Source: a virus
Strand: one strand, 5' to 3'
Virus record (IMG/VR): IMGVR_UViG_3300027917_002335
Location: 35,502-99,501 of that record
Length of the DNA stretch: 64,000 nucleotides
Shown: one piece after another, positions 21,050-52,893 of the stretch
Numbering within the stretch: position 1 is the stretch's first letter
How the letters are laid out: each line of letters starts with the position of its first letter
Position numbers and translations under genes: made by a program
The notes under the pieces: model-generated
What the model was told of the DNA's origin: nothing
Seen by the model: the letters and a program-made list of their open reading frames with translations, nothing else
Databases searched by the model: none

Positions 21050-21121
21050 GGGCTCGTAGTAAAGCGGAATTACATCTCCTTTGCACGGAGAAGAGCGAGG
21101 GTTCAAATCCTTCCGAGTCCA
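21050..21121 (+). tRNA. tRNA-Ala (UGC), no encoded CCA
   Basis: Acceptor GGGCTCG/CGAGTCC with the G3:U70 Ala determinant, D-stem GTAA/TTAC, anticodon stem TCTCC/GGAGA with loop TTTGCAC, T-arm GAGGG-TTCAAAT-CCTTC. Confidence 0.93.
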
Positions 21122-21128
21122 TAAAAAA

Positions 21129-21199
21129 GGGAGAGTAGTTTAAAGGTAGAACAGACAGCGTGAGAGCTGTTAACGAGGGCTCAATTCCCTCCTCTCCCA
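21129..21199 (+). tRNA. aberrant tRNA-like gene (pseudo-tRNA or mimic)
   Basis: Acceptor GGGAGAG/CTCTCCC, D-arm GTTT/GAAC and T-stem GAGGG/CCCTC are intact, but the anticodon loop is 6 nt (GTGAGA) and the T-loop is CTCAATT. Confidence 0.65.
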
Positions 21200-31061: not shown

Positions 31062-31220
31062 ATGTATGAAAGAAAAATGTGCCCTATGTGTGGAGCAGTG
31101 GGAAAAGATTTAAGAGAAGTAGAAGATAGAAGACCAAGTAGAAGAATGTATAGAATTTCTACTGGAACTTTTATGTATCCTAAAAAGAATTATTGTAAAA
31201 AATGCGGGTATGAATGGTAA
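31062..31220 (+). CDS. Zn-ribbon microprotein
   Basis: Hand translation ...CPMCG...LREVEDR...KKNYCKKCGYEW. Confidence 0.6.
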   Translation: MYERKMCPMCGAVGKDLREVEDRRPSRRMYRISTGTFMYPKKNYCKKCGYEW

Positions 31221-31663
31221 TGAGCTTACAAAGATTTATGGATGGAGTTTTTGAAGGAATTTGGGACACAAAAGATTTCAAAACAGATAAGTTTATTGCG
31301 TGGGATATAGGTTCGGAGATTGTAATTAATCGGAATTTTTTTCCCGATGATATAAGAATTTATACAGAATATAAAACAGTTCAAATGGTTTATTCTTATA
31401 AAACTGGCGTATGTATTGAATGGAACGGAAACTATTTCTTTGCTAATATGATAAAGAAATATATTGAAGAAGGATTTCAAAACAAACCTGTTGAAATAAG
31501 ATTTTTTAGGGCTGGTTTAGTTTATATGGAGTTTAAGATAGATGAAACTTACTCCTTTGTTGTTCAACAAATTATGGATTACGATGGTAAAGGAGATTTA
31601 AAACCAATACCATTTGACAAAGTATTTAAAAATGTAACAATTTCAAGTGATATGGAATTATGA
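31214..31663 (+). CDS. hypothetical protein with C-terminal DMEL tag; paralog of 51662-52129
   Basis: Ends ISSDMEL; shares GN.FF...I...E..F.N..VE...FK.DE.Y with 51662-52129. Confidence 0.75.
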   Translation: MVMSLQRFMDGVFEGIWDTKDFKTDKFIAWDIGSEIVINRNFFPDDIRIYTEYKTVQMVYSYKTGVCIEWNGNYFFANMIKKYIEEGFQNKPVEIRFFRAGLVYMEFKIDETYSFVVQQIMDYDGKGDLKPIPFDKVFKNVTISSDMEL

Positions 31664-33971: not shown

Positions 33972-35093
33972 TTGGGAGAAAAAATGATGATAGAGAACGC
34001 CCTTAAAAGTCCATTGAAAACGCATTCTGATTATAGTTACCAGCGATTTTGTAAAAATGTTAAAAAGTTAGTTTTCCAAAATAGATTTACCATAGATGAG
34101 ATTGCTAAAATGACAAAGCGTTCTGTTGAAGAATGTGTCGAAGCATTTGAAATCTACACTGGGAAAAAATTACCTGCTACATTTCTGATTGCTGGAAATG
34201 AAAGGCAAATAAATGAACTCAGAAAACTCATCCTCCAAAAACAAAAAATCCTTCTCTTCGGAAAAAACGGGGTAGGTAAATCAACTATACCGAAAAAATT
34301 GGCTCAAGAATTAGGTTGGAGAATTGTTTATTCATACCCCACAAATAATGAAGAGCTTTTAGTAGATTTCTCTGAACTTCCCCTCAAGACAAAGAACACA
34401 ATCTTTGTTATTGAGGGGGACTCCTTTTATTGGAGGAGTTATGGATTAATAAATCACTATATTAAAGAATCTAAAAATCCAATAATTATTATTGTAGATA
34501 AATCTGATAAGGTTCACGCTACAGTAAGAAAACAATTAGTAACAGTAAAATTATCTTCACCAACAAGAGAAGATGTAAAGAAATGGGTGGAAAGAAAATA
34601 CCCAGATTGGAAGGGAAATATTAATGATGTGTATGACGAGAATATGCGAGTCACACTCCGAAATATTAAGTATGGGATAAAAACCTATAAACCTTCTAAG
34701 GAAGAGAAGCTGGACGCCCAGCAAGTAGCATACCGTGTGATACAAGGAAAGGCAACAGTCCAGGACTTCGAAAATTGTATACATCCTTTTGATTGGATAC
34801 TTAGTTGGATAGGATATAATGCCTATACTTTTTATTACGGCACAGATGTTCAAGATTTAATGTCTTGGATTGATGACAAAAAATATAATTTTAAACCTGA
34901 TTATCTCAGAGGTTGTCTTCTTAATTTGAGAAAGCCTGATAAAAGAGGAAAGTTAAAATTTCCTCCACAAGGATTTAAACCTAAAAAGGAAGATGAGGAA
35001 GATTGGATTAAAGAAAAACGAAAAATTAAAAAAATTAAGAAGGAAGAACCTCAACCTAAAGTTTTTAAGTTTGCAGGAGATATGGAACTGTGA
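33972..35093 (+). CDS. rfcL: replication factor C large subunit-like clamp loader, C-terminal DMEL tag
   Basis: Walker A GKNGVGKS, LAQELGW, degenerate Walker B (FVIEGD), WI..N collar-like region, charged tail ending FAGDMEL. Confidence 0.7.
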   Translation: MGEKMMIENALKSPLKTHSDYSYQRFCKNVKKLVFQNRFTIDEIAKMTKRSVEECVEAFEIYTGKKLPATFLIAGNERQINELRKLILQKQKILLFGKNGVGKSTIPKKLAQELGWRIVYSYPTNNEELLVDFSELPLKTKNTIFVIEGDSFYWRSYGLINHYIKESKNPIIIIVDKSDKVHATVRKQLVTVKLSSPTREDVKKWVERKYPDWKGNINDVYDENMRVTLRNIKYGIKTYKPSKEEKLDAQQVAYRVIQGKATVQDFENCIHPFDWILSWIGYNAYTFYYGTDVQDLMSWIDDKKYNFKPDYLRGCLLNLRKPDKRGKLKFPPQGFKPKKEDEEDWIKEKRKIKKIKKEEPQPKVFKFAGDMEL

Positions 35094-35532: not shown

Positions 35533-35844
35533 ATGAGCTTTTGGGAAAAATTTAAGGCTGGTTGTAGTTGGTTGTATGGAAAGGCAAAAGCAGGAATTAT
35601 TGCCGCAGGTAAATGGTTAAAAAAGAAATTACCTATTTTAGGTGGGTGGATTTTAAGTGGATGTAAATTAGCAATTAAACTTGCTAAGGGAGCAATTTTT
35701 GGAGCTTATTATGGAATGAAAGATGGCTATAATGCTTGGAAAGAAACTCCTAGTTATGAACCATGTACTTGCATATCATTTGAGTATTTAGCTGATGATA
35801 TACTCGATGATCCTGAGCCAGAACCTGAACCAGTGATTGAATAA
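35533..35844 (+). CDS. amphipathic-helix protein with PEPEPEP tail
   Basis: W/K/G-rich amphipathic repeats. Confidence 0.55.
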   Translation: MSFWEKFKAGCSWLYGKAKAGIIAAGKWLKKKLPILGGWILSGCKLAIKLAKGAIFGAYYGMKDGYNAWKETPSYEPCTCISFEYLADDILDDPEPEPEPVIE

Positions 35845-36479
35845 TGATTATAGGATTGTGTGGAAAAAAACGGAGCGGAAAAGACACAGCAGCAGAATAT
35901 TTGTGTTTTGCTTATAAATTTACAAGGTATGGTCTTGCTGATCCGATGAAAAAGGCAGTAAAAGAAATCTTCTTATTATCAGATGACCAATTGTGGGGAG
36001 ATTTAAAGGAAGCATTAGATGCTCGTTATAACACTACTGCAAGGAAATTACTCCAAGTTTTTGGTACTGAATTATTTCAATATGATATTTATAAGCATAT
36101 TCCAGAATTATCAGTAGAACCAAGAAAATTATGGATTAATAGATTTGTATTGTGGTATCGTTATAAACAGGGCGGTATTCCTATTCATTTCATTAATTCA
36201 TTAAATAATGAAATAATGTATAATGACGCCCCCTTGGATGTCGTTATAAGCGATGTTCGTTTTCCGCACGAAGTTGATGTAATCCGCGAAATGGGCGGAA
36301 TAATTGTGAAAATTGACAGAACATGCGTTGATTGTACTGACTGTCACGCTAGCGAAACAGAGATGGATAAAATAGAACCAGATTATATTATTGATAATAA
36401 TGGTTCAATAAAAGATTTAGAACACAATTTAGATATACTTATAGAGGGTATAAAACGAAATGAAAAGAATAGTAAATAG
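35844..36479 (+). CDS. deoxynucleoside monophosphate kinase (T4 gp1-like)
   Basis: IIGLCGKKRSGKDT, ADPMK, R.LLQ.FGTE, SDVRF..E and H.SE. Confidence 0.9.
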   Translation: MIIGLCGKKRSGKDTAAEYLCFAYKFTRYGLADPMKKAVKEIFLLSDDQLWGDLKEALDARYNTTARKLLQVFGTELFQYDIYKHIPELSVEPRKLWINRFVLWYRYKQGGIPIHFINSLNNEIMYNDAPLDVVISDVRFPHEVDVIREMGGIIVKIDRTCVDCTDCHASETEMDKIEPDYIIDNNGSIKDLEHNLDILIEGIKRNEKNSK

Positions 36480-37113
36480 ATTTGTAACTCCTCACGCCAT
36501 TAAATACAAGGCTCGTGAAAAGCTAATAATGGAGAGAACCAAAGCTGGTCATAGAGGACCTATTGGAGCTATTCGTCTAACTGCTGATAGAACTGTTGAG
36601 GCTTTTCTTGATTACTTTGATATGTTAGGCTCAGATGGTTGGATTTATTCTGGAATTTGTGAAGATCCAGATCTTCCCTATGGTGGGGTTCATGTATTCT
36701 ATAAATGGGTTGAAGACGATGGTTTTAAATCAACCATTGAAGAACCAGAAATTATAGATGAACAACCTCTTTCTGCTTCTGAAGTTTATGAAAGAGAAAG
36801 AGAGAGACAAGAACTTTTAAAACAAACAACCGATCCTAGACAAATATCGGATGCAAGATTAAATGCTGAGATGATGGCACGACAAGAACCAATTAAGGAT
36901 TTAGATGAAGATAGCGATATCTTAGAAGAATTAGATTATGCAGTTCATCACGAAGAAGTTATGGAAGACGAAGATCCAAAGAAAATTAGGTTTGAATTAT
37001 ACAAACAGTATGAAGAAATCAATCCTAATAAGAAAGCTGTTTTTAGAGGCAAAGAAACACAAGGATTTACAGAATGGTTGGAATCACAACAGGAAAAATG
37101 GGCTAAAAAATAA
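36460..37113 (+). CDS. hypothetical protein with C-terminal A(V/I)xRG..T..F.EW microdomain
   Basis: 217-aa ORF; motif shared with 43013-43285. Confidence 0.7.
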   Translation: MKRIVNRFVTPHAIKYKAREKLIMERTKAGHRGPIGAIRLTADRTVEAFLDYFDMLGSDGWIYSGICEDPDLPYGGVHVFYKWVEDDGFKSTIEEPEIIDEQPLSASEVYERERERQELLKQTTDPRQISDARLNAEMMARQEPIKDLDEDSDILEELDYAVHHEEVMEDEDPKKIRFELYKQYEEINPNKKAVFRGKETQGFTEWLESQQEKWAKK

Positions 37114-38090
37114 TGAACCTTGATGTGAAATACCGTCCGAGAACCTTTAAGGAATTTAAAGGCAACGAACGGATTATTAGGGATATAAAAGCCTTACTCA
37201 AAGTTGGAGATTTACCACACCTTATGTTTGTTGGACCTCCAGGAACTGGTAAAACAACACTAGCACTTCTTATTGCTCGAACAGTATTAGGAAGACCTAT
37301 TCATATTAATACTCGTGATGGCGATCCAGATTTTAAAGAGTTAAATGCTTCTAGTGCAAGAGGAATAGATGTTGTAAGAGAAGTAATAGAAGAATACGCT
37401 AGGGTTAAACCATTAGAAGGTACTCCTTATAGATTTATTTTATTAGATGAAATAGATTCTTCTACTCAGGAATTTCAACACGCCCTACGACCTGTTATTG
37501 AAAAGAATGAAGATAGATGTAAGTTTATTCTATGTTTAAACAGGATTCAAGGAATAAAAGAACCAGCTTTAATTTCTAGGTGTGCAACATTCTTTTTTGA
37601 AAAGCCTAATACTGATGTAACAGCTAGCTTGTTACTTGAAATAGCTGAGAAGGAAGGAGTTAAATTTGAGGATGAACAATTAGCTTATGATGTAGCAGAA
37701 TATTATGAAGGAGACTTGCGCCATATTCTCAACGATTGTTTAGAAACATTAAGAGGATATGATGAGGTAATAACTAAAGATCATTTATGGAAAGTCTATG
37801 AGAAAAATGGAAAATCAGTTGCTTCAAGAGTATATGAATCTGAAAATCCAAAGGAAGAATTCTTTACAATATATAGGAAAGAAGCCTTTGATGTTAGAGA
37901 GTTTTTGGAAGAATATTTCAAGCTCTTAGGAGATAAAGGGATTCCGCACTCGAAAGAGATTTCCAAGATAGACGCAAGAATTAGAAATTATTGTAATGTA
38001 CCAATACAAATGAGTTATTTTTTCTCGTTATTTGAAAACGAAGGTGAAAAAGAGGATGGAATTAAGACTAAGTTTAAAAAACCCTTCTGA
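37113..38090 (+). CDS. rfcS: replication factor C small subunit
   Basis: KYRP, GPPGTGKTT, ELNAS..RGIDVVR, LDEID, ALISRC and GDLR. Confidence 0.95.
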   Translation: MNLDVKYRPRTFKEFKGNERIIRDIKALLKVGDLPHLMFVGPPGTGKTTLALLIARTVLGRPIHINTRDGDPDFKELNASSARGIDVVREVIEEYARVKPLEGTPYRFILLDEIDSSTQEFQHALRPVIEKNEDRCKFILCLNRIQGIKEPALISRCATFFFEKPNTDVTASLLLEIAEKEGVKFEDEQLAYDVAEYYEGDLRHILNDCLETLRGYDEVITKDHLWKVYEKNGKSVASRVYESENPKEEFFTIYRKEAFDVREFLEEYFKLLGDKGIPHSKEISKIDARIRNYCNVPIQMSYFFSLFENEGEKEDGIKTKFKKPF

Positions 38091-38358
38091 ATTGGCATTG
38101 TTAAAAGAAGTCACCAAAGCATTAGGAAACTATACTCGATTAGCTATTTTAGATTTAATTGCTAAAGATACCACAGGCAATTTAAACTATGGAGAATTGG
38201 CAAACAAATTGAAGAGAAGTCCTACTGCTATTACAAATCATATGGGTTTGTTAAGGAGAAGCAAGTTGACAGAGGATATGATAGTAGAAGGGAAAAGAGG
38301 TAAAATGCAAAAACTTCCACAATTAAAATATGACAAAATAGTTATTGAGTTAAAATGA
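38056..38358 (+). CDS. ArsR-family winged-HTH regulator
   Basis: KALGN.TRL.IL, ELA..L..SPTAITNHM..L; probable start MELRL at 38056. Confidence 0.8.
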   Translation: MELRLSLKNPSELALLKEVTKALGNYTRLAILDLIAKDTTGNLNYGELANKLKRSPTAITNHMGLLRRSKLTEDMIVEGKRGKMQKLPQLKYDKIVIELK

Positions 38359-39197
38359 ATGACTACGACTTCATGCCACAAACTCCAGAAGATATAAACT
38401 CTCCTGTGTTAGTTCCGTTTGGTCACGATAGTACAATTATAAGATTGTTGCTTGATTTAGAAAAAGATGTATATGTGGCACCTCAATATAAATTCTGGGG
38501 AACAAGGTTGCAAATATTATTGAAGAGACATCCTAGTAAATATACACTCGATTATATTCAAGAGAAAATAAACAGTGAATATACTGGTGTAGTTACGAAG
38601 AGTAAATATAGACATCTATTCAATACTCTTTTTAATGAAGAAACTGCCGAGTTCATAGATAAAATTTACCAGATTGAATTCGATCAAAAAGAAAAAGATA
38701 TCGTTATTTTCTTATTAACCTATGAACTTGAACGAAGGAGTGATGATCTATATCAATTCAAAAAAACGACTCTAAATTTAGAAGTATTGAATGATATATT
38801 TGAAAATTTACTCGATTATTTTGATTTTCTAGTTGATGTTAAAAATATGAGAGTATATATCCTAAAAGATGAATTAAGCAATCAAAAGTTTGGTGGAGTT
38901 GTGGATTCTTTATATAGGAACGCAAGGTATTATACGCCACAATATTTAGGATTTGTTTCTGTATTTACAGGAGAAGTAGAACATGTAAAAAGCTGGGAAG
39001 ATAGACTCCAACATGTTGCAGAACATAATTTAATACATGGAGGAAGAATTTATTTGCCCGACTATCCAAGTGAATATAAAATTAAGATAGATAAAATGTT
39101 AAATAAATTAAATTATAAGAAAGAAAGTTTGTTTGTTTGGCGTAGACCAGATATCAAGGTAAATAAAATTACAAAAGGAATAAAAAGGTATTTTTAA
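38355..39197 (+). CDS. hypothetical protein in replication operon
   Basis: 280-aa ORF; no motif recognised. Confidence 0.7.
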   Translation: MNDYDFMPQTPEDINSPVLVPFGHDSTIIRLLLDLEKDVYVAPQYKFWGTRLQILLKRHPSKYTLDYIQEKINSEYTGVVTKSKYRHLFNTLFNEETAEFIDKIYQIEFDQKEKDIVIFLLTYELERRSDDLYQFKKTTLNLEVLNDIFENLLDYFDFLVDVKNMRVYILKDELSNQKFGGVVDSLYRNARYYTPQYLGFVSVFTGEVEHVKSWEDRLQHVAEHNLIHGGRIYLPDYPSEYKIKIDKMLNKLNYKKESLFVWRRPDIKVNKITKGIKRYF

Positions 39198-39198
39198 T

Positions 39199-40527
39199 AT
39201 GGAGCTAGATTTACACACAAAGAAAGTTTTAGAAAATTTAGCTAAGTCTTTTGAGAAAGATTTCTCCAAGGTGGTTGAACTTTTTGAATATGCACGGGAG
39301 AAAATCGCTGAAGAGACAGGCAAGAAAGAGCCCAAACTTAGCATCGCTGCTATACATGTAACAAGGGCTAAGCTAACAGAGCTTCAACAAGAAACTGGAA
39401 AAGAAATAAATATTATTATATTTGGAAAAGATCCTAGTAGAGATTCCAATGCTTCACTACGAAAACAGATTCTTGCTGACTTCTGGAATAATCCAGAATC
39501 AAGACGAAAAGTCGTTGAGCAAGGAAAAGTTATGGTAATGAAAGCAGGTAAGGGAGATCCTACTAAAGATTTTCATTCAGTTTATAAGCCTGTTACAAAG
39601 ATTATAGAATCAGTAGAAGTTGACGGAGAAACAGTCGTAACAAAGGGAGAGATTTGGGATCCTGCATTGGTTATCGATCCTATTTGTAGAGACTTTAGAA
39701 AGTTCTTAGATGATGACGAGAATGTAGAGAATTGGAATTATACCAAACCGTTATTAGAGAATTGGCGTACTACTTATTTTGGAATTGGTTATTTTGAAGA
39801 CACTCCAGATCTAACCAAGAAAGTTCAACTAAGATTTTTTGGTGATAGTGCTGATCCTCATAGTGGACAATTTGTAGGTAAACGAATTGATTTCTTTATT
39901 CCATATAAAGTGAAAGTAACAGTAAATGAAAATTTAAGCACAGAAGATTGTTATTCTGTATCTGCTAAAAATGTTCCTGTTCCATCTGGAGATGTTGATA
40001 TTGACATTATAGCAATGTTAGAAGCAATTAACACAATGCATAGAGCCAGATTAGAAGCAAAAGGAAAGAAACCATTAGATTTAATTCCTATTGTTGATAT
40101 GGCTGATTTAAAGAAATGGCATTTAGAACGCAGAGCTAGGAAAGATGTTGATGGAAACATAATGAAATCAGATTCCGGCTGGGATTTAACAAATTGGGAT
40201 GAATATTGTGTCATAGATCAAGTTACCTATCTTGGTTTGAGAGAATTTTCAGAAGGATACAAACCAGCAGTACTTCAACACGATTCAACTGGTAGGCGTT
40301 CTTTCTTTGTTAATTATGACAACGATATTAATATGAATGTTCCTGTACCAGCAGATATATTGATTTGTGTTAAGACTGGAAGAGGTCTATCTTCTTATGA
40401 TAGAGAATCAAGAACCAAAGTAGAACTTTCTGACGATCCAGATTTGTCAATTAACATTTGTGGATTGAAAACTTTAGAGAGTTATGAGAAGATTATCTTT
40501 CCAAAAGAGGTTACTGGTGACTTGTAA
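39199..40527 (+). CDS. hypothetical protein, possibly ssDNA-binding (OB-fold) protein
   Basis: Lies between RFC and the ATPase/clamp/PolB genes; helical N-terminus then beta-rich; function inferred from context only. Confidence 0.4.
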   Translation: MELDLHTKKVLENLAKSFEKDFSKVVELFEYAREKIAEETGKKEPKLSIAAIHVTRAKLTELQQETGKEINIIIFGKDPSRDSNASLRKQILADFWNNPESRRKVVEQGKVMVMKAGKGDPTKDFHSVYKPVTKIIESVEVDGETVVTKGEIWDPALVIDPICRDFRKFLDDDENVENWNYTKPLLENWRTTYFGIGYFEDTPDLTKKVQLRFFGDSADPHSGQFVGKRIDFFIPYKVKVTVNENLSTEDCYSVSAKNVPVPSGDVDIDIIAMLEAINTMHRARLEAKGKKPLDLIPIVDMADLKKWHLERRARKDVDGNIMKSDSGWDLTNWDEYCVIDQVTYLGLREFSEGYKPAVLQHDSTGRRSFFVNYDNDINMNVPVPADILICVKTGRGLSSYDRESRTKVELSDDPDLSINICGLKTLESYEKIIFPKEVTGDL

Positions 40528-40829: not shown

Positions 40830-41825
40830 ATGAGCTTCAGTAAATTTACCAAACCTGCAGTACATGTTGATGATGAAGAATTAAAGAGAAGTATTTCTTA
40901 TAAGAAGATTCAACCTGATGCAAAGTTTGGTCTTAATATAGCTCTAATTGCGCCTGCTGGATTTGGAAAAACTCTCATGTCTACTGCTTTTGGCTATTTC
41001 AATTCAAAGTATATGGATAGATTGGACAAGGAGAAATTTCCTTACTCCATTCGTTTGTTAAAGGAAGGACACATGTCAGAAGTAGAGAAGATTGTTATCC
41101 ATGATTTAGATAATGGATACCACAAAGCAATGTCTCGTGGAACATTTAAGAGGATATTAGAACCTTTAGTTCCTATAATAGATGTTGTTGAGTTTGATAT
41201 TCCAGAAAGGGATGTAGAAGTTGAATTAGGAAAAACAAAATCTGTAAGAATAGATGAACTTTTAAAAGCAAAGAGAGAAGTAGAAGACGCGGCTAAAGCA
41301 GCAGTTGCTGATTTTGGCTCAGAAGTTTTATGGATAGTAGATTCTCTTAGTGAATATTACCAAGTCCTGGACTCTATGTTCTCTATTGTCTATGAAGCAG
41401 TCTATGATAAAGAAGTTGGTTCTCGTGTGGAGAATCAGAAAGACTGGCAAATCCGAAACGCTTGGTGGAATGAATATATGAAGCGTAAAAGGAAATATAA
41501 AGGATGGCAAATAGACAATGTTAAAGCAGTACCAATTCCACCTCATTGGGTTAAGAAAAATGATCCAGATCCATACAACATTAAATGGGCTGAAGGAAGT
41601 GGAGGCAATGCTTTTAATTTAGACCAAGTTTATAGATTACATAAAGACGCTGAAGGATTTCCTTATTTCAACTTAATAGATGGAAGATATAAAAGTAAGA
41701 TAGCAACAGATAATATAGAGCTATATTATGCGTATGACAAAAGAGATGTTGCTTTCTATATAATAGAACACATAGCAAAATATATAATTGAAGGATCAGA
41801 AATAAAAGAGGAAGAACTATGGTAG
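40830..41825 (+). CDS. RecA/Sak4-like P-loop ATPase
   Basis: Walker A APAGFGKT, HDLDNG and Walker B WIVDSLS. Confidence 0.7.
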   Translation: MSFSKFTKPAVHVDDEELKRSISYKKIQPDAKFGLNIALIAPAGFGKTLMSTAFGYFNSKYMDRLDKEKFPYSIRLLKEGHMSEVEKIVIHDLDNGYHKAMSRGTFKRILEPLVPIIDVVEFDIPERDVEVELGKTKSVRIDELLKAKREVEDAAKAAVADFGSEVLWIVDSLSEYYQVLDSMFSIVYEAVYDKEVGSRVENQKDWQIRNAWWNEYMKRKRKYKGWQIDNVKAVPIPPHWVKKNDPDPYNIKWAEGSGGNAFNLDQVYRLHKDAEGFPYFNLIDGRYKSKIATDNIELYYAYDKRDVAFYIIEHIAKYIIEGSEIKEEELW

Positions 41826-42069: not shown

Positions 42070-43011
42070 ATGACAAGATTTAGAATTAAAGGTAAAGAAT
42101 TCCAAAAGTTTTTGGATGGAGTGTCTTGCAGAGGGGTACTCCAATTTAAAAGTAAGGGGAAAACAGAAGCACCCCTTTTCTCTGCTTTTTATATTGATGT
42201 AGATAAAGATAATCAAAAGCTAACTGTTTTAACAATTGATACATTCTTTCAACAAATAAAGCAAGACAGTTCAATTAAAGCAAAGGTTGATGAAGCTGGA
42301 GTGGTTGAAATAACTAACAAGATAACCTTTGACAAAATCTTTAAATCTATGGATGTTGAAAAAGAAATAGAAGTTTGGGATGACCAAGACGCTATTTATA
42401 TTCAAACTGTGGATGGTTCAGATTGGTATAAGAGAAGGTTAACTGGAGACAAGGCTTTAGACGATGTTTATAGCCAGAAAGATTTGCTTTTTAATTGGAG
42501 AGATTCTCATTCTTATGTAGATGTTGTAGCCGATGATGGCGAAACAATGAAAGTAGCAAAATTCACGACTCCAAAAGGTTCTGCTTTATATCCTATGAGA
42601 ATAAAGTTAGACAAAAAAGATTTACTTAAACTCGTATCTGATTCAATAAATCTCACAAAAGATAATGATACTGTTATTTTTAGTGAGGAAGGAAAATTAA
42701 TTATATCTACTGGAAGACCTAATGCCACTAGTATGGCTCGTCATAAAATTACATATGAGAATTTAGGAAAAGAAATATTACCTTTCTCAATTAAGTTCTC
42801 TGCCTTACAAGCAATCATTCCTAATTTGTTAGATGAAATTATTTTTAATTTCAGAAAGCAAAAGAATGAGACAATGGTTTTAAGAATAGAGAGTATGGAC
42901 AAGACTATGGTTCAAGTGTTTTCAATTGGAAGTCAAGACAAAGATGGAGTCTTGTATGATGTAGATATAATTGAAGAAGTAGAAAGTATAGAAGATATAG
43001 AGGAAGAGTAA
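42070..43011 (+). CDS. divergent sliding clamp (PCNA/beta-clamp-like)
   Basis: Two tandem halves with clamp-like patterns (FRIKGKEFQKFLDGV...LTVLTID...G.VEI...FDKIFK and IKLDKKDLLKLVSDS...KLIIS...SIKFSALQAII), acidic tail, between RFC and PolB genes. Confidence 0.6.
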   Translation: MTRFRIKGKEFQKFLDGVSCRGVLQFKSKGKTEAPLFSAFYIDVDKDNQKLTVLTIDTFFQQIKQDSSIKAKVDEAGVVEITNKITFDKIFKSMDVEKEIEVWDDQDAIYIQTVDGSDWYKRRLTGDKALDDVYSQKDLLFNWRDSHSYVDVVADDGETMKVAKFTTPKGSALYPMRIKLDKKDLLKLVSDSINLTKDNDTVIFSEEGKLIISTGRPNATSMARHKITYENLGKEILPFSIKFSALQAIIPNLLDEIIFNFRKQKNETMVLRIESMDKTMVQVFSIGSQDKDGVLYDVDIIEEVESIEDIEEE

Positions 43012-44717: not shown

Positions 44718-44827
44718 AATGTCCTTTTTGTCTTAGTGAAAAAGTAAATGATATAGGTGACATAGATCATCGAATATATCTCTGTGAAAAGTGTAATGAA
44801 ATGTGGTATGGAGAAGACTATGATTAG
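44714..44827 (+). CDS. Zn-finger microprotein within split polB
   Basis: Hand translation from GTG: KCPFC...YLCEKC. Confidence 0.55.
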   Translation: MKCPFCLSEKVNDIGDIDHRIYLCEKCNEMWYGEDYD

Positions 44828-45068
44828 ATGTAAGAAATGTGGGCTTGAATTAAGGTTGTCTTGTGGTTGTACTGGTCATTTTGAATGCCCGAGGTGTGGT
44901 AGAGTAGATTCTGAAGCAACAAACTTAAGATGTCCAATGCATAATGTACCATTAGTACCATACAAACCAACATTAGGTTGGACAGCAAAGAATACATACA
45001 AATGTCCAGTTGCTGGATGTTTTCATATTATTCATATCCATAAAATGGAACCATTTAGGTTTGAATAA
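44820..45068 (+). CDS. multi-Zn-ribbon protein within split polB
   Basis: CKKC, CPRC, CPMH and CPVAGC; probable start MIRC at 44820. Confidence 0.65.
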   Translation: MIRCKKCGLELRLSCGCTGHFECPRCGRVDSEATNLRCPMHNVPLVPYKPTLGWTAKNTYKCPVAGCFHIIHIHKMEPFRFE

Positions 45069-45346
45069 TGATACTGTCAGATATATTAAAAGAAGGAGAA
45101 AAATCATACGAGATACCTCCTGCTTATAGAACTATTGAGATACGACATCGTAAACTTGCGTTGACTATTGTAAAATATGATGTAATAATAACATTTGAAC
45201 AATACAGTAGTTTAATGAAAGACATGAAAGATGGTAGAGCCGTTTGGGTTGATGGAAAAGAAGCAATGATAGTTTATACAAGAGGAGTAAGTATGATTGA
45301 AGATATGATAAAAATAGATGAGATTAGATATGACTGTTTGCGATAA
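45068..45346 (+). CDS. hypothetical protein within split polB
   Basis: 92-aa coupled ORF. Confidence 0.6.
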   Translation: MILSDILKEGEKSYEIPPAYRTIEIRHRKLALTIVKYDVIITFEQYSSLMKDMKDGRAVWVDGKEAMIVYTRGVSMIEDMIKIDEIRYDCLR

Positions 45347-46994
45347 GTTGCTCGACTATAATCTTGTAGATGTGGAAGGTCTTGTCTTATTAGACGATTT
45401 CTTTAAGATGATAGAAGACCAATTTGAACAAGCACATCTTGTGGTTGCTCCTCCAGACGATGGAATATATTCCAGCAAAATGCACGACCATGATATGATT
45501 AGAGATTATAGAGAGACAATGGTTTTTGATACAAAGTATCAGAAATGGGAGAGAAAACCAATAACAGGTAAGAAGCAGATTGGTTCTAAATTTACAATTA
45601 CATTGGAAGATTTAGTAGAAGTTAGGAAGAGGAGAGGAGATACTGAAGAAATTAAAAGTTTACATGATTTGCCAAAAATCGGGGGGTATGTGCCTGAACC
45701 ATTAAGAGCCGGGATGTTCGTATGGGTTATTACAATAGATTTTAACAAACAATATCCCAATGCGATAATGAGTTCAAACGCCGGAATAAAAACAGCAATT
45801 AATTTGTTAAAATATAACGATGAAGAAGTTTGGGATAAGGATGGAACGGTTTACCAACGAACGAATCTAATCGAAACGCCCATGGGCTTTTTCAGGAAAG
45901 ATATTGAATCAGTTAATAGAAAGAAATTTATGAAGTGGCTTGAGTTACGATTAAAAGCTCAAGAGATGGCTACAGCGTACTTAAAAGCTAAAAAAACTAT
46001 TGAAGATCCAATGTATAAGTTGTTAGATGGCAAACAATTTCGAATCAAAACTTTCACGAATGGAGGATTCGGAATCATGGGTTTACCAGCTGACAGGAAT
46101 TACTCAAAATTTATATTCAATAATTGTACTCTCATGTGTCAAGATTTGACTAAGAAGATGATGAATGTTTTAAAAGAACTTGACTATGTTGTTATTGGAG
46201 GAGATACAGATTCTTGTTTTGTTTGTTTAAAATGTAAAAATTTAGAAGAAGCAATAGAAGAGGGAAAAGAATTAGTAAATAAGATTAATAAGATAATAGA
46301 TAATTATCTTCGTAGAGTTTATAATATACAAGAACACACAATGAAAGTTGGATTAGAAACTATATCAGATAAATTCTGGGTTAAAGCAGCTAAAAATTAT
46401 GTTAAAAGAAATCTATGGAAGGATGGTCAAATTTTAGACAAGGCTGAATTAGAAATAAAAGGTATCTCTCAAAAGAAGAGAAACACATCTAAATTCTCTG
46501 CTGACTTACAATCTACTATGATAGATATATTGTTAGATTCTCCTAATGTAGAGGAAGATTTTAAATTATTGATGAAAGTTCTTGATTCAAGATTCGAAAC
46601 ATTACCTTGGACTTATATTGCACCTAAAGGAGCAATCAATAGTGAGATAGATGATTATGATTTAGGTAATAGAAATGCAAGAGGAGCTAGAAACACTCGT
46701 GATTATTTTAACAAATATTTTAATCCTGGCGACAATCCATATATAATGCCGTTCAGCCAGTTTCCTAAGAAGTTGAATGGAAAGTTTGTAACACCTTATA
46801 AAGGAGATACAATTGTGTTATCTTTTGATGAAGAAGATGTAGAAGAACTTAAAAATTTAGGATTCGTTCCAGATTATGAAGAATTAAAAAGAAGCCAGTT
46901 AAATGAGAAATCAAAACCGTTTCTCAGCTTAATGAATACTTCTTATTATCAAATGAGAGCATTAAATAAAGTGAGCAATGATATGGAATTATGA
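45318..46994 (+). CDS. polB: family B DNA polymerase catalytic part (split gene, part 2), C-terminal DMEL tag
   Basis: ExoIII YNLVD at the N-terminus, GGYV, motif A DFNKQYP, motif B K...NGGFG, motif C GDTDS, KNY and KG; ends VSNDMEL. Confidence 0.92.
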   Translation: MRLDMTVCDKLLDYNLVDVEGLVLLDDFFKMIEDQFEQAHLVVAPPDDGIYSSKMHDHDMIRDYRETMVFDTKYQKWERKPITGKKQIGSKFTITLEDLVEVRKRRGDTEEIKSLHDLPKIGGYVPEPLRAGMFVWVITIDFNKQYPNAIMSSNAGIKTAINLLKYNDEEVWDKDGTVYQRTNLIETPMGFFRKDIESVNRKKFMKWLELRLKAQEMATAYLKAKKTIEDPMYKLLDGKQFRIKTFTNGGFGIMGLPADRNYSKFIFNNCTLMCQDLTKKMMNVLKELDYVVIGGDTDSCFVCLKCKNLEEAIEEGKELVNKINKIIDNYLRRVYNIQEHTMKVGLETISDKFWVKAAKNYVKRNLWKDGQILDKAELEIKGISQKKRNTSKFSADLQSTMIDILLDSPNVEEDFKLLMKVLDSRFETLPWTYIAPKGAINSEIDDYDLGNRNARGARNTRDYFNKYFNPGDNPYIMPFSQFPKKLNGKFVTPYKGDTIVLSFDEEDVEELKNLGFVPDYEELKRSQLNEKSKPFLSLMNTSYYQMRALNKVSNDMEL

Positions 46995-47131
46995 TACCAG
47001 ATAATGTATGTATTTTATGTGGCAAAAGAGGATATTGTATAGATTTCAAGGAAGGTTCTTATGATATATATAGATGTCCTTATTGTAAAAGATTTTGGAC
47101 TATAATGGTAGATAAAAATGAAGATTCTTAA
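46991..47131 (+). CDS. Zn-finger microprotein
   Basis: Hand translation MIPDNVCILCG...YRCPYC; ATGA overlap with the polB stop. Confidence 0.6.
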   Translation: MIPDNVCILCGKRGYCIDFKEGSYDIYRCPYCKRFWTIMVDKNEDS

Positions 47132-47789
47132 TTTATTCGCAGGAATAGGAGGAAATCGTGCTCTATGGGGAGACGAGCACGAAGTTACAGCGGTAGAACA
47201 TGACGATAGAATTGCTCGAATTTACAAAAGAAGATACAAGAATGATAGAGTAATTATTGCGGATGCTTATGATTACTGTCTTTGGTTCTATGATGAATAT
47301 GATTTCATTTGGGCTTCCCCGCCTTGCCCTACTCACTCTATTACCAACAATTTTCTACATGCTCAAGGTGTAAGGAGATATCCAGATATGAAACTCTGGC
47401 AGTTAATTATCTTCTTAAAATACTATTCAACTTATAATAATAATAATATCAACTGGGTAGTAGAAAATGTTAAAACCTACTATGAACCTATTATAAAACC
47501 ATCATTCATACTGGGCAGGCATTACTTCTGGTCTAATGTCCATATACCTAGGAAGAAGTATGAATACTCTACAATTACAGTTACTAATGTGAAATCTGCT
47601 ACAAGAAGAGATAATTGGGAATACTTAGCAGAGTTAGAAAAATATTTAGGAATTAAATTAGCTGATGATGTAACTGGAGAGAGAAGAAGACAATTATTAA
47701 GAAACTGTGTTAAGCCAGAAATAGGAAAATATATATTAGATTATATTATAGAAGGACCTAGTGAGATAAGTAATGATATGGAGTTATAG
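47118..47789 (+). CDS. compact DNA cytosine-5 methyltransferase, C-terminal DMEL tag
   Basis: NLFAGIGG, SPPC, ENV, R..FWSN and RNCV; ends ISNDMEL. Confidence 0.9.
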   Translation: MKILNLFAGIGGNRALWGDEHEVTAVEHDDRIARIYKRRYKNDRVIIADAYDYCLWFYDEYDFIWASPPCPTHSITNNFLHAQGVRRYPDMKLWQLIIFLKYYSTYNNNNINWVVENVKTYYEPIIKPSFILGRHYFWSNVHIPRKKYEYSTITVTNVKSATRRDNWEYLAELEKYLGIKLADDVTGERRRQLLRNCVKPEIGKYILDYIIEGPSEISNDMEL

Positions 47790-48067
47790 AAGTAGGGAAA
47801 ATTTATTTAATAAGATAATGGTAAAGATAAGAAAAATTCTTTACTTTGTGTTGAAATTAGATATACATAAGAAATATGAAGCTGATAAAGATATTCAAGG
47901 ATTTATCCCGCTTCTTTCTTATAATCCAAAAACAAAATTTTATAGATTTAATTGTTATTGCAGAACTTGTCCTTGTAATTTTAAAGGATTATGTAGTACA
48001 CATTTCTATTCTATTCCGTATGTGTTATTACATGAATTTGATGGTGATAACATAATAAAAAATTTTT

Positions 48068-48625
48068 GTGGTTAATATGTATGATGAATGGAATAAAATA
48101 AAAGCAAAATGCCGTGACAGTGTAGTGGTAGATAAAGTGTTGTTCGAATCAAAATCTATTGAGTGGGGTACTCCTCAATGGTTATTTGACGAACTAAATG
48201 AAGAATTTGATTTTGTCTTAGATCCTTGTGCTAACGAAGAAAACCATAAATGTGAGAAATGGTATTCAAAAGAAGACAATGGTCTATCACAAGATTGGTC
48301 TATCTATAAAAGGGTTTTTATGAATCCTCCTTATGGAAGAGTAATAAAAGATTGGATGAAAAAGGCACACGAAGAATATTTGAAAGGAGCTACTGTTGTT
48401 TGTCTTGTTCCAGCAAGAACTGATACACAATGGTGGCACGACTATTGTATGAAAGCAACTGAGATTAGATTTATCAAAGGTAGGTTGACATTTGAAGGAG
48501 GAAAGCATTCTGCTCCTTTTCCATCAGCGATTGTCGTTTTTCAATTGAGAGATTATCCAAACTTTTTTGGAGAAGTAAGTAGATTTATTAAGAATAATGA
48601 AGTGAGATGCAGTAAATATGGGTAA
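48068..48625 (+). CDS. phage-type DNA N6-adenine methyltransferase
   Basis: W.TP, LDPCA, DNGL..DW, NPPY, LVPARTDT and GRL.F. Confidence 0.92.
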   Translation: MVNMYDEWNKIKAKCRDSVVVDKVLFESKSIEWGTPQWLFDELNEEFDFVLDPCANEENHKCEKWYSKEDNGLSQDWSIYKRVFMNPPYGRVIKDWMKKAHEEYLKGATVVCLVPARTDTQWWHDYCMKATEIRFIKGRLTFEGGKHSAPFPSAIVVFQLRDYPNFFGEVSRFIKNNEVRCSKYG

Positions 48626-49484
48626 TTGGATACAATCATTATTAGGATGGTATGGAGGAAAATATAATTTATTGGATTATATTTTACCTTTCCCAAGACA
48701 CACAACTTTTGTAGAAGTATTTGGAGGCAGTTCTGTTGTTTTGTTTAATAAGATACCCTCTGAAATAGAAGTTGTTAACGATATAAATTCACGATTAATT
48801 AATTTCTGGAAGACAATTCAAGAAGCACGAAGAGAATTTGTAGATTATTGTAAGAATGAAGGAGGAATAGATAGTCGTGCCTTATTCGATGAGTATAGAG
48901 AAAAGGCAGATAAGAAAGTAGAAGATGCTTTTAGATTATATTATGTAAATCATCACAGTTTTTCACAAATGAATAATGCTTATCATGGAATTTCATTTAC
49001 AGGAAGAGAACAATGGCATTCTCCTTATCTAAATAAATTGGAGCATATAGACGAATATTATAAGAGAATAAAACATGTGCAATTTGAATGTCAAGATTTC
49101 AGAAAATTATTAAAAAGATGTGATAGAGAAACGGCTTGTATTTATTTAGATCCTCCTTATTTTACAGGAGGAGAAGTTTATGAATATATGGCTGGAATAG
49201 AAACAGGCTGGAATCAACAAGATTTTGTAGATTTAAGAACACTATTGAAAGATATTAAGAAAGCTAAGTTCGTTCTTAGTATAGACGAGAAAGATTTTTG
49301 GTTAGAAGAAATGCCAGATTTATATGTGCAACCAATAGAGAGAGTTAATAATGCTTCTCTATCTATAGGTGAAGAGAAATCTAGGAGTATAGAATATGTG
49401 ATTAGAAATTATAATCCAAGAACTACTCCGACTATGAGAACTATGGCTGGTAAAAATAAAATAAAAAACGATATGGAATTATAA
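48618..49484 (+). CDS. Dam-like (D12 class) DNA adenine methyltransferase, C-terminal DMEL tag
   Basis: WYGGK, FVEVFGGS, VNDIN and YLDPPY; ends IKNDMEL. Confidence 0.92.
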   Translation: MGNWIQSLLGWYGGKYNLLDYILPFPRHTTFVEVFGGSSVVLFNKIPSEIEVVNDINSRLINFWKTIQEARREFVDYCKNEGGIDSRALFDEYREKADKKVEDAFRLYYVNHHSFSQMNNAYHGISFTGREQWHSPYLNKLEHIDEYYKRIKHVQFECQDFRKLLKRCDRETACIYLDPPYFTGGEVYEYMAGIETGWNQQDFVDLRTLLKDIKKAKFVLSIDEKDFWLEEMPDLYVQPIERVNNASLSIGEEKSRSIEYVIRNYNPRTTPTMRTMAGKNKIKNDMEL

Positions 49485-50468: not shown

Positions 50469-51209
50469 ATGTACAAGGAAAATCCGAAGACAAAGGGTAG
50501 TGGAATATATGCTGTAATTCCGCAAACAGGTCATTGTCCTAACAATTGTGATGATTGTTTCTTCCAATCAGGTCGTTCTTTCTTAGAACCTTTGGATGAG
50601 AATTTACCCAATCTTTACGATTATAAATATCTTGAAGAAATGTATAGTAAAGTGTTTAGGATAAATGATGGAAACGATAGTAATGTTGACAGAGAAACTG
50701 TTATGGAAAAGACAGGCAAATATCTGTTGAAATTCTATAATACTGCTATCCCAAGAGACTTAGAAGAGTTTGATGCTCCATTTGTTTTGACTATAAATCC
50801 GGGGTTTATGACTGATAGAAGTTGGCATAAACTTATAGAGATTCCAAAGAATTTAATGTTTGTAAGAATAAGAACGAACTGTTGGAATTTAGAACAAGTT
50901 GTCAAACCAGCGGTGAAATACTATACTGAGAAAGAAGTACCAGTTGTATTAACATTCATGGCTTACTTTGATACTCCTATTCCAGAAGGATATGAAGATG
51001 ATTATATATTTAGAAAGAGAACTCTTAACTCTTACAATGCTATAACTACACAAGCATGGGAAGAGATTATGAGAATGTTTAAATATAATGCTTATGTATA
51101 TTCTTGTGGAAAGATTGAAGGAGAAAAAGGAACAACCAAATGTGCCAGATGTGGTAATTGTATAAGAGAATTTTTTGTTACAATGGAACGAATGAAAGAT
51201 GAGTTATAA
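50469..51209 (+). CDS. radical SAM-like protein
   Basis: CPNNCDDCF (CxxxCxxC) plus C-terminal CARCGNC. Confidence 0.7.
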   Translation: MYKENPKTKGSGIYAVIPQTGHCPNNCDDCFFQSGRSFLEPLDENLPNLYDYKYLEEMYSKVFRINDGNDSNVDRETVMEKTGKYLLKFYNTAIPRDLEEFDAPFVLTINPGFMTDRSWHKLIEIPKNLMFVRIRTNCWNLEQVVKPAVKYYTEKEVPVVLTFMAYFDTPIPEGYEDDYIFRKRTLNSYNAITTQAWEEIMRMFKYNAYVYSCGKIEGEKGTTKCARCGNCIREFFVTMERMKDEL

Positions 51210-51696
51210 TAGACGAATAGAAGAAGGATATAAAAAAATAGGAAAAAAATTAGATAAAGACGGCAATATTATGAAAAAAATTTATTTTGCTCATCCATTT
51301 GACAAATGGAATAGCAAACGAGAAGAAATGATAGAGCAAACATTATCAGAGAGAGGTTACGAAGTTATAAATCCTTTCAAAGAAGAGGATAGACTAAACG
51401 AAAAATATGGCGTTAATAATTACTACGAAGATCCAACCTATGAATTTGCCAGAGATATAGTTGACAAGGATTATCAGATGGTCAAAGATTGTGATGAATA
51501 TTTTGGTTGGTTTCCAAAAGATGTCACAATGATTGGTACTCCACTTGAACTGGCTTGGGCAAAAGATTTAGGTAAAAAGATTACAGTGCTTTGCTACAAA
51601 CCACAACCTTTCTTATGGATGTATGCTGATATATTTTATATAGGATACGACAATTTTAAAAATGATGTTAGATTCTACGATAAAGAAGTTCATTGA
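51199..51696 (+). CDS. nucleoside 2-deoxyribosyltransferase / dNMP N-glycosidase family
   Basis: KIYFAHPF, VINP, D...V..CD and GT..E..WA..LGK. Confidence 0.8.
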   Translation: MSYNRRIEEGYKKIGKKLDKDGNIMKKIYFAHPFDKWNSKREEMIEQTLSERGYEVINPFKEEDRLNEKYGVNNYYEDPTYEFARDIVDKDYQMVKDCDEYFGWFPKDVTMIGTPLELAWAKDLGKKITVLCYKPQPFLWMYADIFYIGYDNFKNDVRFYDKEVH

Positions 51697-52129
51697 ACTA
51701 TTTGGAGAATGTTTGGAAGACGATAAGAAAGACTTGCAAGAGTATGTTGTGCAAGCCTCCGCTTCTAGGATAGAGGGTATTATAGAGTTGAAAGGATTTT
51801 ATAAGACACATACTCCAAATGAAACATTTTATAGTTTTGCAGATTTACCAAGAATTATTGAGAAAAAGAATCAAGTTGTGGCTCTTGGTAATAAATTCTT
51901 TCCTTATGAAAGAGTTAGGCAAGTGTTAGAAAACTTCTTTGTTAATAATGTCGAAGTAGGTCTCTATCATGGAAAAGGAGCTTCTGCTCTTGTGTTTAAA
52001 CTTGATGAAGAATATGGAATTATGATGGCAAATAAAGTAGAGAAAGAAAAGAAAGATCCCAATGAAGTATTATATAGGTGGGATGATTTATTTTTCCACA
52101 AAAGTTTTGGAGATGATATGGAATTATGA
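51662..52129 (+). CDS. hypothetical protein with C-terminal DMEL tag; paralog of 31214-31663
   Basis: Ends FGDDMEL; shared central motif. Confidence 0.75.
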   Translation: MMLDSTIKKFIELFGECLEDDKKDLQEYVVQASASRIEGIIELKGFYKTHTPNETFYSFADLPRIIEKKNQVVALGNKFFPYERVRQVLENFFVNNVEVGLYHGKGASALVFKLDEEYGIMMANKVEKEKKDPNEVLYRWDDLFFHKSFGDDMEL

Positions 52130-52893
52130 ATTTTTTATTGACAAGTGAAATGAGAGTTGGTAGTAGGTGGATTCATTATTTACTCCAAGATATAACAGGA
52201 TATAAAGTAAGTCCAGAAATAGATGTATCCAAACTTGCTACTTCAGAAAAAACAGTTAGAGGATATTTCCATCAACAAAGAATTCCAAAGTATCATCACG
52301 CTACACAATTTCAAATACTCCGACATGTTAAACCACATGATTATAAGATAATTGGAATTGTTAGAAATCCCTTAGATAGGATTACTTCTCTTACATTTCA
52401 TCAACGATATAAGCCTCCAGGCAAAGGATTATCAAGTATAAAAGAGGCAGAAAACGATATAGATGCTGTGAAGGTTGCTTTCTATCACAACGATTATAGA
52501 AATGACGACGAAAGACAGTTTATCTTAATGACTCCAAGATGTTCAACAGTAGCTTATAGAAACGAATTCTCTAATTCATTAGATTGGAAATATATATGGA
52601 CAACTTATGAATGGCTACAAAGAGATACAGAAATGGAAATAAGAACTATATTAGATTTCTTAGGTTTTGAAATAGACGATGTTGTTATTAAGAATAATAT
52701 AAGAAAGCATTCATTTAGAAATAAAAGTGGTAGAGAACCTGGACAAGAAAAGAGAGTTGATGAGTGGAGAAGAAAGGGAGTTAATGATGACTGGAAGAAT
52801 TTCTTTACAAAAGAAATGTATGAAGACGGTAAATTAGCACAAGAAACATATAGAATGCTAACAGCAAATGAATTATATTTAGTGGTGGAATAG
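52126..52893 (+). CDS. PAPS-dependent sulfotransferase
   Basis: 5'-PSB-like RVGSRW, 3'-PB RNPLDRITS, YE.L and RKG...DWKN.FT. Confidence 0.88.
   Translation: MNFLLTSEMRVGSRWIHYLLQDITGYKVSPEIDVSKLATSEKTVRGYFHQQRIPKYHHATQFQILRHVKPHDYKIIGIVRNPLDRITSLTFHQRYKPPGKGLSSIKEAENDIDAVKVAFYHNDYRNDDERQFILMTPRCSTVAYRNEFSNSLDWKYIWTTYEWLQRDTEMEIRTILDFLGFEIDDVVIKNNIRKHSFRNKSGREPGQEKRVDEWRRKGVNDDWKNFFTKEMYEDGKLAQETYRMLTANELYLVVE

Follow-up and report, generated by a model that had tools for sequence, protein, structure and literature searches.

A probable sliding clamp, too diverged for recognition by sequence searches, as a putative docking platform for D-M-E-L-tailed replication proteins in a virus from marine sediments

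In viruses, clamp loaders and sliding clamps co-occur as a module, and a distant clamp homologue, missed earlier, was found in the haloarchaeal tailed virus HVTV-1 (PMC4889955). In magroviruses, replication proteins were detected only by profile-profile searches (PMC5434244). Divergent PCNA-like clamps of archaeal tailed viruses are, with these two examples, already known in principle. The docking of other proteins on clamps through short motifs has also been described: the LDFL ends of T4 gp55 and gp33 are clamp-docking C-terminal peptides, and Dnmt1 carries a PCNA-binding motif (PMC9690074). Here we consider the gene P0001, located at positions 42070-43011 of a 64,000-nucleotide stretch of viral DNA (the window, to which all our coordinates refer unless stated otherwise), which comprises bases 35502-99501 of a single IMG/VR virus record of 99,501 bp, IMGVR_UViG_3300027917_002335, estimated by CheckV as 100% complete. 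Its product, a clamp by predicted structure and by gene context, is too diverged to be recognised by sequence searches, and it is probably a platform on which the viral polymerase, a clamp-loader subunit and DNA methyltransferases dock by a shared D-M-E-L tail.

The open reading frame of P0001 starts with ATG, encodes 313 residues and ends with TAA, and the strand opposite contains many stops; it is a real gene. The protein gave nothing significant against Pfam, PHROG and the sequences of the PDB, so that a first-pass annotation of this DNA, made from the letters alone, was correct in saying that recognisable PCNA signatures are lacking. The profile of the whole family gave nothing significant against Pfam and PDB sequences either (the best PCNA in the PDB was at E 0.8). 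Among 23 family members compared with the PCNA profiles, one reached no better than E 0.048, and no match was obtained by tblastn against 50,697 phage records.

A HMMER search of 1.84 billion cluster representatives provided 26 relatives of P0001 with E <1e-3, almost all of them 280-330 residues long. Closer relatives, 51-84% identical, were obtained in a second search; they contain no Pfam domain, their sole name is 'hypothetical protein', and the closest are encoded on a 95-kb contig (84% identity) and a 99-kb contig. The family shows 22-84% identity over the full length, and its gene neighbourhood is conserved. IMG/VR scans with the single protein or with alignments of three distant clades gave nothing. 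No relatives were found in scanned GTDB genome contigs, and hence these gave no clue to the host.

The fold was predicted by AlphaFold2 on an alignment of 23 family sequences (alignment A1). The model has a mean predicted local distance difference test score (pLDDT) of 91.9 and a predicted template modelling score of 0.88, and all five models exceed 90 pLDDT. In a Foldseek search of the PDB, all listed matches are PCNA or DnaN chains (E about 1e-11, probability 1.0). A VIA search of 48,161 representative chains, which is independent of Foldseek, retrieved exclusively sliding clamps and processivity factors down to Z 9.9, namely PCNA (Z 17.5-20.5), subunits of the 9-1-1 complex (Z 15.2-17.5), the clamp of African swine fever virus (ASFV; Z 17.3), DnaN (Z 14-17), T4 gp45 (Z 15.6), UL44 (Z 13.6) and UL42 (Z 11.4). 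A designed protein followed at Z 7.9 and unrelated natural folds at Z <=4.5, so that a gap of more than 5 units separates clamps from all other natural folds. The best superposition on PCNA by VIA-align covers 228 residues with Z 20.5, a root-mean-square deviation (rmsd) of 2.5 Å and 13% identity. A fold unrelated to DNA clamps, which would have spoken against the first-pass annotation, is not what the model shows, and we have hardly any doubt that the protein adopts the predicted DNA clamp fold, with PCNA as the closest solved form.

The domain boundaries below were derived by reading the DSSP string of the model against the known order of PCNA elements, rather than by residue-level superposition, and are inferred in this sense.

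42070..43011, plus strand: probable sliding-clamp gene P0001 (open reading frame; AlphaFold2 pLDDT 91.9; PCNA Z 20.5)
42070..42438, plus strand: residues 1-123, predicted as clamp domain 1; helices 8-19 and 84-93 belong to its two beta-alpha-beta-beta-beta units
42439..42594, plus strand: predicted enlarged inter-domain connector, residues 124-175 (DSSP), carrying L140, W143 and H147
42595..42939, plus strand: predicted clamp domain 2, residues 176-290, helices 182-196 and 246-252, L-T-K-D-N and I-I-P-N motifs
42940..43008, plus strand: acidic C-terminal tail, residues 291-313, 11 D/E of 23, pLDDT 54-67

Most of what the first-pass annotation had read from the sequence is found in this layout. 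The beta-alpha-beta-beta-beta spacing that it proposed corresponds to two such units per domain. The long inter-domain segment is represented by helices 128-135 and 137-145, followed by three short strands within 147-173, and the acidic tail contains 11 D/E and 1 K/R in 23 residues. The isoelectric point is 4.97 for the whole protein versus 6.24 for residues 1-290. The protein is also longer than typical PCNA, by about 60 residues, as had been stated. Its two similar halves stand in fold; in sequence they do not, with z 0.03 in a local alignment against 500 shuffles and a probability of 1.8% for the half-profiles in hhalign, and the likeness of the halves is limited to the level of fold. A short extended inter-domain loop, as in the PCNA family, is not seen in the model; according to the inferred boundaries, a connector of about 50 residues, composed of helices and a hairpin, appears to stand in for the PCNA loop of about 17 residues. 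Together with the 23-residue tail, it would make up most of the additional residues.

Invariant positions are few in the family alignment. The most conserved parts are the L-T-K-D-N loop that follows helix 182-196, the helix ending in I-I-P-N (246-252), Arg262 and Ser275, as well as Leu140, Trp143 and His147 of the connector. The acidic tail and the rest of the connector are least conserved. Trp143 is kept in 19 of the 23 members and Ser288 in 20.

Gene context points to the same function. As the first-pass annotation had noticed, the gene lies between genes of RFC type and polB: an RFC-small-subunit homologue and an AAA+ gene are upstream, and a family-B polymerase split into two genes is downstream. 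The neighbouring genes of the module are as follows.

33972..35093, plus strand: AAA+ protein, a candidate for the large subunit of the clamp loader (weak matches to AAA and clamp-loader profiles)
35844-36479: deoxynucleoside monophosphate (dNMP) kinase
37113..38090, plus strand: clamp-loader subunit of the archaeal RFC-small-subunit type (Archaeoglobus fulgidus 3e-43; phrog_5846 1.6e-40)
38355-39197 and 39199-40527: two proteins of unassigned function
40830-41825: AAA_24/RecA-like protein, 331 residues
43440..44717, plus strand: family-B DNA polymerase, exonuclease part of the split gene (PF03104 1.8e-11; phrog_262)
45318..46994, plus strand: family-B DNA polymerase, catalytic part (PF00136 1.3e-20)
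47118-49484: three DNA methyltransferases

The small loader subunit resembles the RFC small subunits of A. fulgidus (3e-43) and Pyrococcus furiosus (1e-41) and is weaker against T4 gp44 (1e-11) and bacterial gamma/tau (1e-10). In the IMG/VR relatives L001-L005, the RFC small subunit, three unassigned proteins, the clamp and the split polB are arranged as in the window; in the metagenome loci L008, L016 and L025 the clamp gene precedes a polB in one piece. No match to PCNA_N (PF00705) or PCNA_C (PF02747) was obtained in any of the six frames of the whole genome, nor did the genome match the gp45 profile (DNA_PPF, PF02916). A clamp is to be expected next to a clamp loader. Since genes for RFC and the split polB adjoin P0001 and the genome, rated as complete, contains no other PCNA or gp45 match, P0001 is almost certainly the clamp of this virus, and that it works as a replicative clamp is, in our opinion, very probable. 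By analogy with PCNA and gp45, it would form a head-to-tail trimeric ring, which the RFC-like loader of the virus would load on primed DNA and which would tether the split polymerase for processive synthesis.

DNA of the record occurs in marine sediment metagenomes among public runs, where no RNA run is listed as holding its sequence. The best cultured matches of its polB are haloarchaeal tailed viruses, with only 23% identity, and its terminase resembles that of T4 only remotely. The host is likely to be an archaeon.

The putative clients of the clamp were recognised by their ends. C-terminal DMEL is present in exactly six open reading frames of the whole genome, in which no other tail is common. 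Its codons vary synonymously among the six, and the repeat therefore lies in the protein, not in the DNA. With a hydrophobic residue at -7 the tag can be written as [K/R/T]-[V/I/F]-x-x-D-M-x-L-COOH. The carriers are the following.

45318..46994, plus strand: catalytic part of polB, tail V-S-N-D-M-E-L encoded at 46971-46991
33972..35093, plus strand: AAA+ protein, K/E-rich linker and then Q-x-x-V-x-K-F-x-x-D-M-E-L
47118..47789, plus strand: C5-cytosine methyltransferase-like protein (PF00145 1.8e-6; phrog_363)
48618..49484, plus strand: D12-class N6-adenine methyltransferase (PF02086 9.5e-27)
31214..31663, plus strand: 149-residue protein of unassigned function, weak paralogue of the 155-residue protein (E 8e-4)
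51662..52129, plus strand: 155-residue protein of unassigned function, homologues in relatives ending in DMIL

In relatives with clamps 54-59% identical to P0001, polB ends in DMQL or DMIL, a methyltransferase in DMEL or DMIL and a 153-residue protein in DMIL. By analogy with T4 gp33 and gp55, the 149- and 155-residue proteins could be clamp-coupled regulators. Neither this virus group nor the D-M-x-L tag was found described in the literature searched, which also yielded nothing on clamp-docking tails of viral methyltransferases.

Archaeal large RFC subunits end in a PCNA-interacting peptide (PIP) box. All 11 homologues of the AAA+ protein end in Q-x-x-hydrophobic-x-[KR]-F-x-x-D-M-x-L preceded by a K/E-rich linker, with Q361, D370, M371 and L373 invariant. 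As judged from this pattern, the tail reads as half a PIP box followed by the tag, and it may record the evolution of the tag from a PIP box. A PIP box is otherwise not what the carriers share: their common end is [K/R/T]-[VIF]-x-x-D-M-x-L-COOH, and half a PIP box was found in the AAA+ protein only. The AlphaFold2 model of this protein is of medium quality (pLDDT 66), and because its top Foldseek matches are headed by yeast Rfc1, closely followed by other AAA+ proteins, a large clamp-loader subunit is a plausible assignment.

More distant clades with the same clamp family possess other shared tails, of the type G-D-[MVF]-M-.. in L008 and L016 and ..L-x-I in L025:

L008: polB ..G-D-M-M-N-P; N6/N4 methyltransferase ..G-D-F-M-L-I
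L016: polB ..G-D-V-M-N-F
L025: polB ..K-G-L-L-A-I; three methyltransferases ..T-I-I-D-I, ..K-T-T-L-I and ..R-V-L-C-I; 95-residue protein ..G-L-L-L-I

A complex was predicted of clamp residues 1-295 (alignment A1) with the last 35 residues of the polymerase, 524-558 (alignment A5). It scored 0.71, versus 0.00 for the best of three controls; the runs have at least 3% of their contacts in common, and the pLDDT of the partner is at least 35. Of 80 solved complexes, 58 come up to the score mark, as do 2 of 110 mismatched pairs; these counts are only a rough guide here because our own alignments were used. In the best run the interface includes only polymerase residues 552-558 (V-S-N-D-M-E-L), which lie in the inter-domain cleft and touch clamp residues 62, 64, 139-146, 165-172, 264-270 and 285-290, that is, the connector helix, the extra hairpin, the domain-2 sheet and the C-terminal strand. 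In our reading of the model, PIP peptides bind to PCNA at this same face. Met556 packs against Leu139, Asn142, Trp143 and Ser146, the terminal Leu558 against Phe165, Thr167, Lys169-Ala172, Gln264 and Lys265, and Asp555 is near Gln62, Lys64, Val270 and Ser285-Gly287. From these contacts the predicted cleft is therefore hydrophobic with basic residues at the rim, which agrees with the basic and hydrophobic pocket that the first-pass annotation had expected for an acidic peptide with a free C-terminus.

Docking of a client peptide in the cleft, a property of the clamp superfamily, is thus reproduced by computation, and the suggestion of the first-pass annotation that P0001 reads the tag has gained this prediction and the set of tagged enzymes in its favour; the support is in silico and contextual. 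We consider it likely that P0001 reads the DMEL tag. The cleft, which the conserved Trp143 of the connector would help to wall, would then bind the tag on the polymerase, the RFC1-like AAA+ protein, two DNA methyltransferases and two small proteins, and the tagged enzymes would travel with the clamp and work on viral DNA that has just been synthesised.

The rim of the predicted cleft differs between clades along with the tag: in the window DMEL is combined with Lys265 and Lys169, in L003 DMIL with Gly265 and Glu169, and both the tails and the pocket residues are different again in the L008, L016 and L025 clades. A further-reaching proposal, which we put forward tentatively and hold to be rather doubtful, is that of a private clamp code, in which a cleft rebuilt by the helical connector with Trp143 reads D-M-x-L, anchored by its C-terminus, and not the PIP box. 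The polymerase, the large loader subunit and anti-restriction methyltransferases would be recruited to viral forks, methylation would be coupled to replication, and viral recruitment would be insulated from the PCNA clients of the host. From clade to clade, tag and pocket would evolve together, and the pocket differences in L003, L008, L016 and L025 may be hints of this.

Several points weigh against what is proposed here. Of the three complex runs, one ended at 0.00 (the others at 0.71 and 0.73), and the partner pLDDT was just 36-52. The complex score may reflect likeness to PCNA-peptide complexes, because many of these have been solved. Pocket residues other than Trp143 and Ser288 are poorly conserved, and within the family conservation is lowest in the connector. 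The assignment of the large RFC subunit is based on a medium-quality model, to which other AAA+ proteins fit nearly as well. The four helices presumed to line the channel carry 8 K/R and 5 D/E per protomer, that is, no more than 8 basic residues, and the strands of the putative trimer interface are no more conserved than average. Oligomeric state, DNA binding, loading and peptide binding of P0001 are all predicted properties. With these points counted, the explanation as a whole, weighted towards the clamp assignment, seems to us quite probable.

Among the other explanations, the one that survives best accepts P0001 as the viral clamp and lets something else read DMEL: a protease or unfoldase, for which the tag would be a degron timing the removal of early enzymes, a receptor for packaging or localisation, or another hub of the replisome such as the AAA_24 RecA-like protein encoded directly upstream or a single-stranded DNA-binding protein. 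The binding of tag to clamp is only predicted, with one failed run in three, and two tagged proteins are without known function. Against this, all tagged proteins of assignable function act on DNA (polymerase, AAA+/RFC1-like protein, two methyltransferases), and clamp-binding C-terminal peptides are established on polymerases and other clamp clients, such as T4 gp55 and gp33 with LDFL, along with the motif of Dnmt1 (PMC9690074). Moreover, precisely the seven tag residues are placed on the canonical clamp face in the prediction, with 0.00 for all three controls. In our opinion, another reader of the tag is unlikely.

It can also be imagined that a protein of PCNA fold does not form a closed ring dependent on a loader and is instead a monomer or C-shaped dimer like UL42/UL44, or a checkpoint platform of the 9-1-1 type. 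The model does match UL44 (Z 13.6) and 9-1-1 subunits (Z 15.2-17.5), and the putative interface strands show no special conservation; their conservation, considered as an argument for a ring, was dropped as merely average. However, the best match is PCNA proper (Z 17.5-20.5), a loader of RFC type, needed by closed rings only, is encoded in the genome, and clamps and loaders co-occur as a viral module (PMC4889955). The PCNA_N, PCNA_C and gp45 profiles indicate no other clamp candidate in the genome, and this alternative is very improbable. That the fold match is a prediction artefact or the gene a decayed, functionless remnant could be suspected from the small family without sequence-level likeness to any clamp, and is extremely improbable given five of five models above 90 pLDDT, clamps more than 5 Z units above all other natural folds, and a family kept at 22-84% identity, in full length and in a conserved neighbourhood.

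Some observations on the neighbouring genes may be added to the view of P0001 as a clamp with docked clients. The 331-residue protein at 40830-41825 is grouped by a protein atlas with AAA_24-type (RecA/Sak4-like) viral clusters; it was considered as a second clamp and rejected, as it looks like an AAA_24/RecA-like ATPase. Its homologues in relatives end in acidic residues plus Trp, ..EELW, ..EDLW and ..EEYW (L001 6413-7399, L003 91-1092, L004 2461-3483), which, to judge by these letters, may be a second and different C-terminal docking motif in the same module. PDB sequence searches with the AAA+ protein, the 331-residue protein and the 155-residue protein were uninformative, and the protein atlas gave nothing usable for a 280-residue neighbour protein. 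The polB halves are about 600 bp apart (44718-45317), with two small open reading frames between them, at 44784-45068 and 45068-45346. The gene is split at the same place in L001-L005 and is unsplit, encoding 934-964 residues, in the L008, L016 and L025 clades. A sulfotransferase-domain protein (52126-52893) and a nucleoside 2-deoxyribosyltransferase-like protein (51199-51696) are encoded among the replication genes and may be part of a DNA or nucleotide modification pathway. Two adjoining tRNA genes were found at 21050-21199, namely tRNA-Ala (TGC) and one with an odd two-base anticodon call.

The clamp assignment gives a function to a protein family named only 'hypothetical' in public sources and completes the replisome of an uncultured group of marine-sediment viruses with replication genes of archaeal type. 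If the tag is indeed read by the clamp, this virus would present a compact natural case of a polymerase and DNA methyltransferases hooked to one sliding platform, and docking by a non-PIP C-terminal motif would parallel, in a virus, that of DNMT1 on PCNA. Since the cultured HVTV-1 is organised alike and has a common tail of its own, a laboratory system is available for testing this idea. A bench test seems worthwhile in view of the rebuilt cleft, of a C-terminal code other than PIP in polymerase, loader and methyltransferases, and of this parallel in a halovirus that can be cultured.

Of the known clamps, PCNA (PDB 3p91, 1rwz, 3ifv) is the most similar to P0001. Each consists of two domains built from two beta-alpha-beta-beta-beta units apiece, and about 228 of about 245 residues can be aligned with Z 19.7-20.5 and an rmsd of 2.5-3.1 Å. 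Both have an RFC-type loader and a family-B polymerase as partners, and the client site predicted for P0001 is on the same face, formed by the connector, the C-terminal strand and the domain-2 sheet. They differ in sequence (12-14% identity, with no PCNA_N or PCNA_C match for P0001) and in length, P0001 being about 60 residues longer with a 23-residue acidic tail. Its predicted connector consists of two helices and a small beta unit instead of an extended loop, and its presumed clients end in D-M-x-L-COOH, whereas PCNA clients carry Q-x-x-[LIM]-x-x-[FY]-[FY]. The ASFV clamp E301R (PDB 8i6g) is likewise a divergent, enlarged viral clamp of PCNA fold (Z 17.3, 236 residues aligned), but belongs to a eukaryotic virus and shows no sequence relationship to P0001. 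Herpesvirus UL42 and UL44 are processivity factors of PCNA-like fold that bind DNA directly, as monomer or dimer, and need no loader. The fold match with them is weaker than that with PCNA (Z 11.4-13.6), and the genome of the window encodes a loader.

In its layout, HVTV-1 is a close parallel. Its 285-residue gene 101, annotated as 'hypothetical' and probably coding for its divergent clamp, lies in a module with clamp loaders, dNMP kinase, polB and a methyltransferase, and HVTV-1 polB is among the best matches of the window polB. The BFVD entry L7TKG1 of HVTV-1 (285 residues), probably the product of gene 101 on matching length alone, is in the top three viral structural matches of P0001 (E 5.5e-12, target-normalised template modelling score 0.69). 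By hhalign of the P0001 family with gene 101, no sequence relationship was detectable (probability 0.9%). Seven proteins of the HVTV-1 replication module (NC_020158.1, 33790-59058) have in common a tail [VP]-L-x-[FWY]-COOH. It is seen in polB (..GVLSW), methyltransferase 89 (..DVLDF), the 417-residue clamp loader 87 (..SVLDF) and HNH endonuclease 92 (..DVLDY), and also in proteins 69, 90 and 99 of unassigned function. The tag thus differs from that of the window, and polB of HVTV-1 is unsplit. The acidic tail of P0001 itself starts with D-K-D-G-V-L-Y-D, the sole part of the tail common to the window and its close relatives, and its G-V-L-Y is similar to the client tail [DG]-V-L-x-[FWY] of HVTV-1. 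This similarity may be due to chance; otherwise, the motif could act as a pseudo-ligand for self-inhibition or could offer a handle to some other partner.

Gp45 of T4 and RB69 is also a virus-encoded two-domain clamp with its own loader, and its clients dock by short C-terminal peptides; a complex of gp45 with a ligase peptide has been solved (6drt) and is listed in the VIA search. Structurally, gp45 is further from P0001 than PCNA (Z 15.6), no gp45 profile match was obtained for P0001, and the loader of the window is far closer to archaeal RFC (3e-43) than to gp44 (1e-11). Summarizing these comparisons, it may be concluded that P0001, as modelled, would work like PCNA and gp45, yet fails the sequence definitions of both families.

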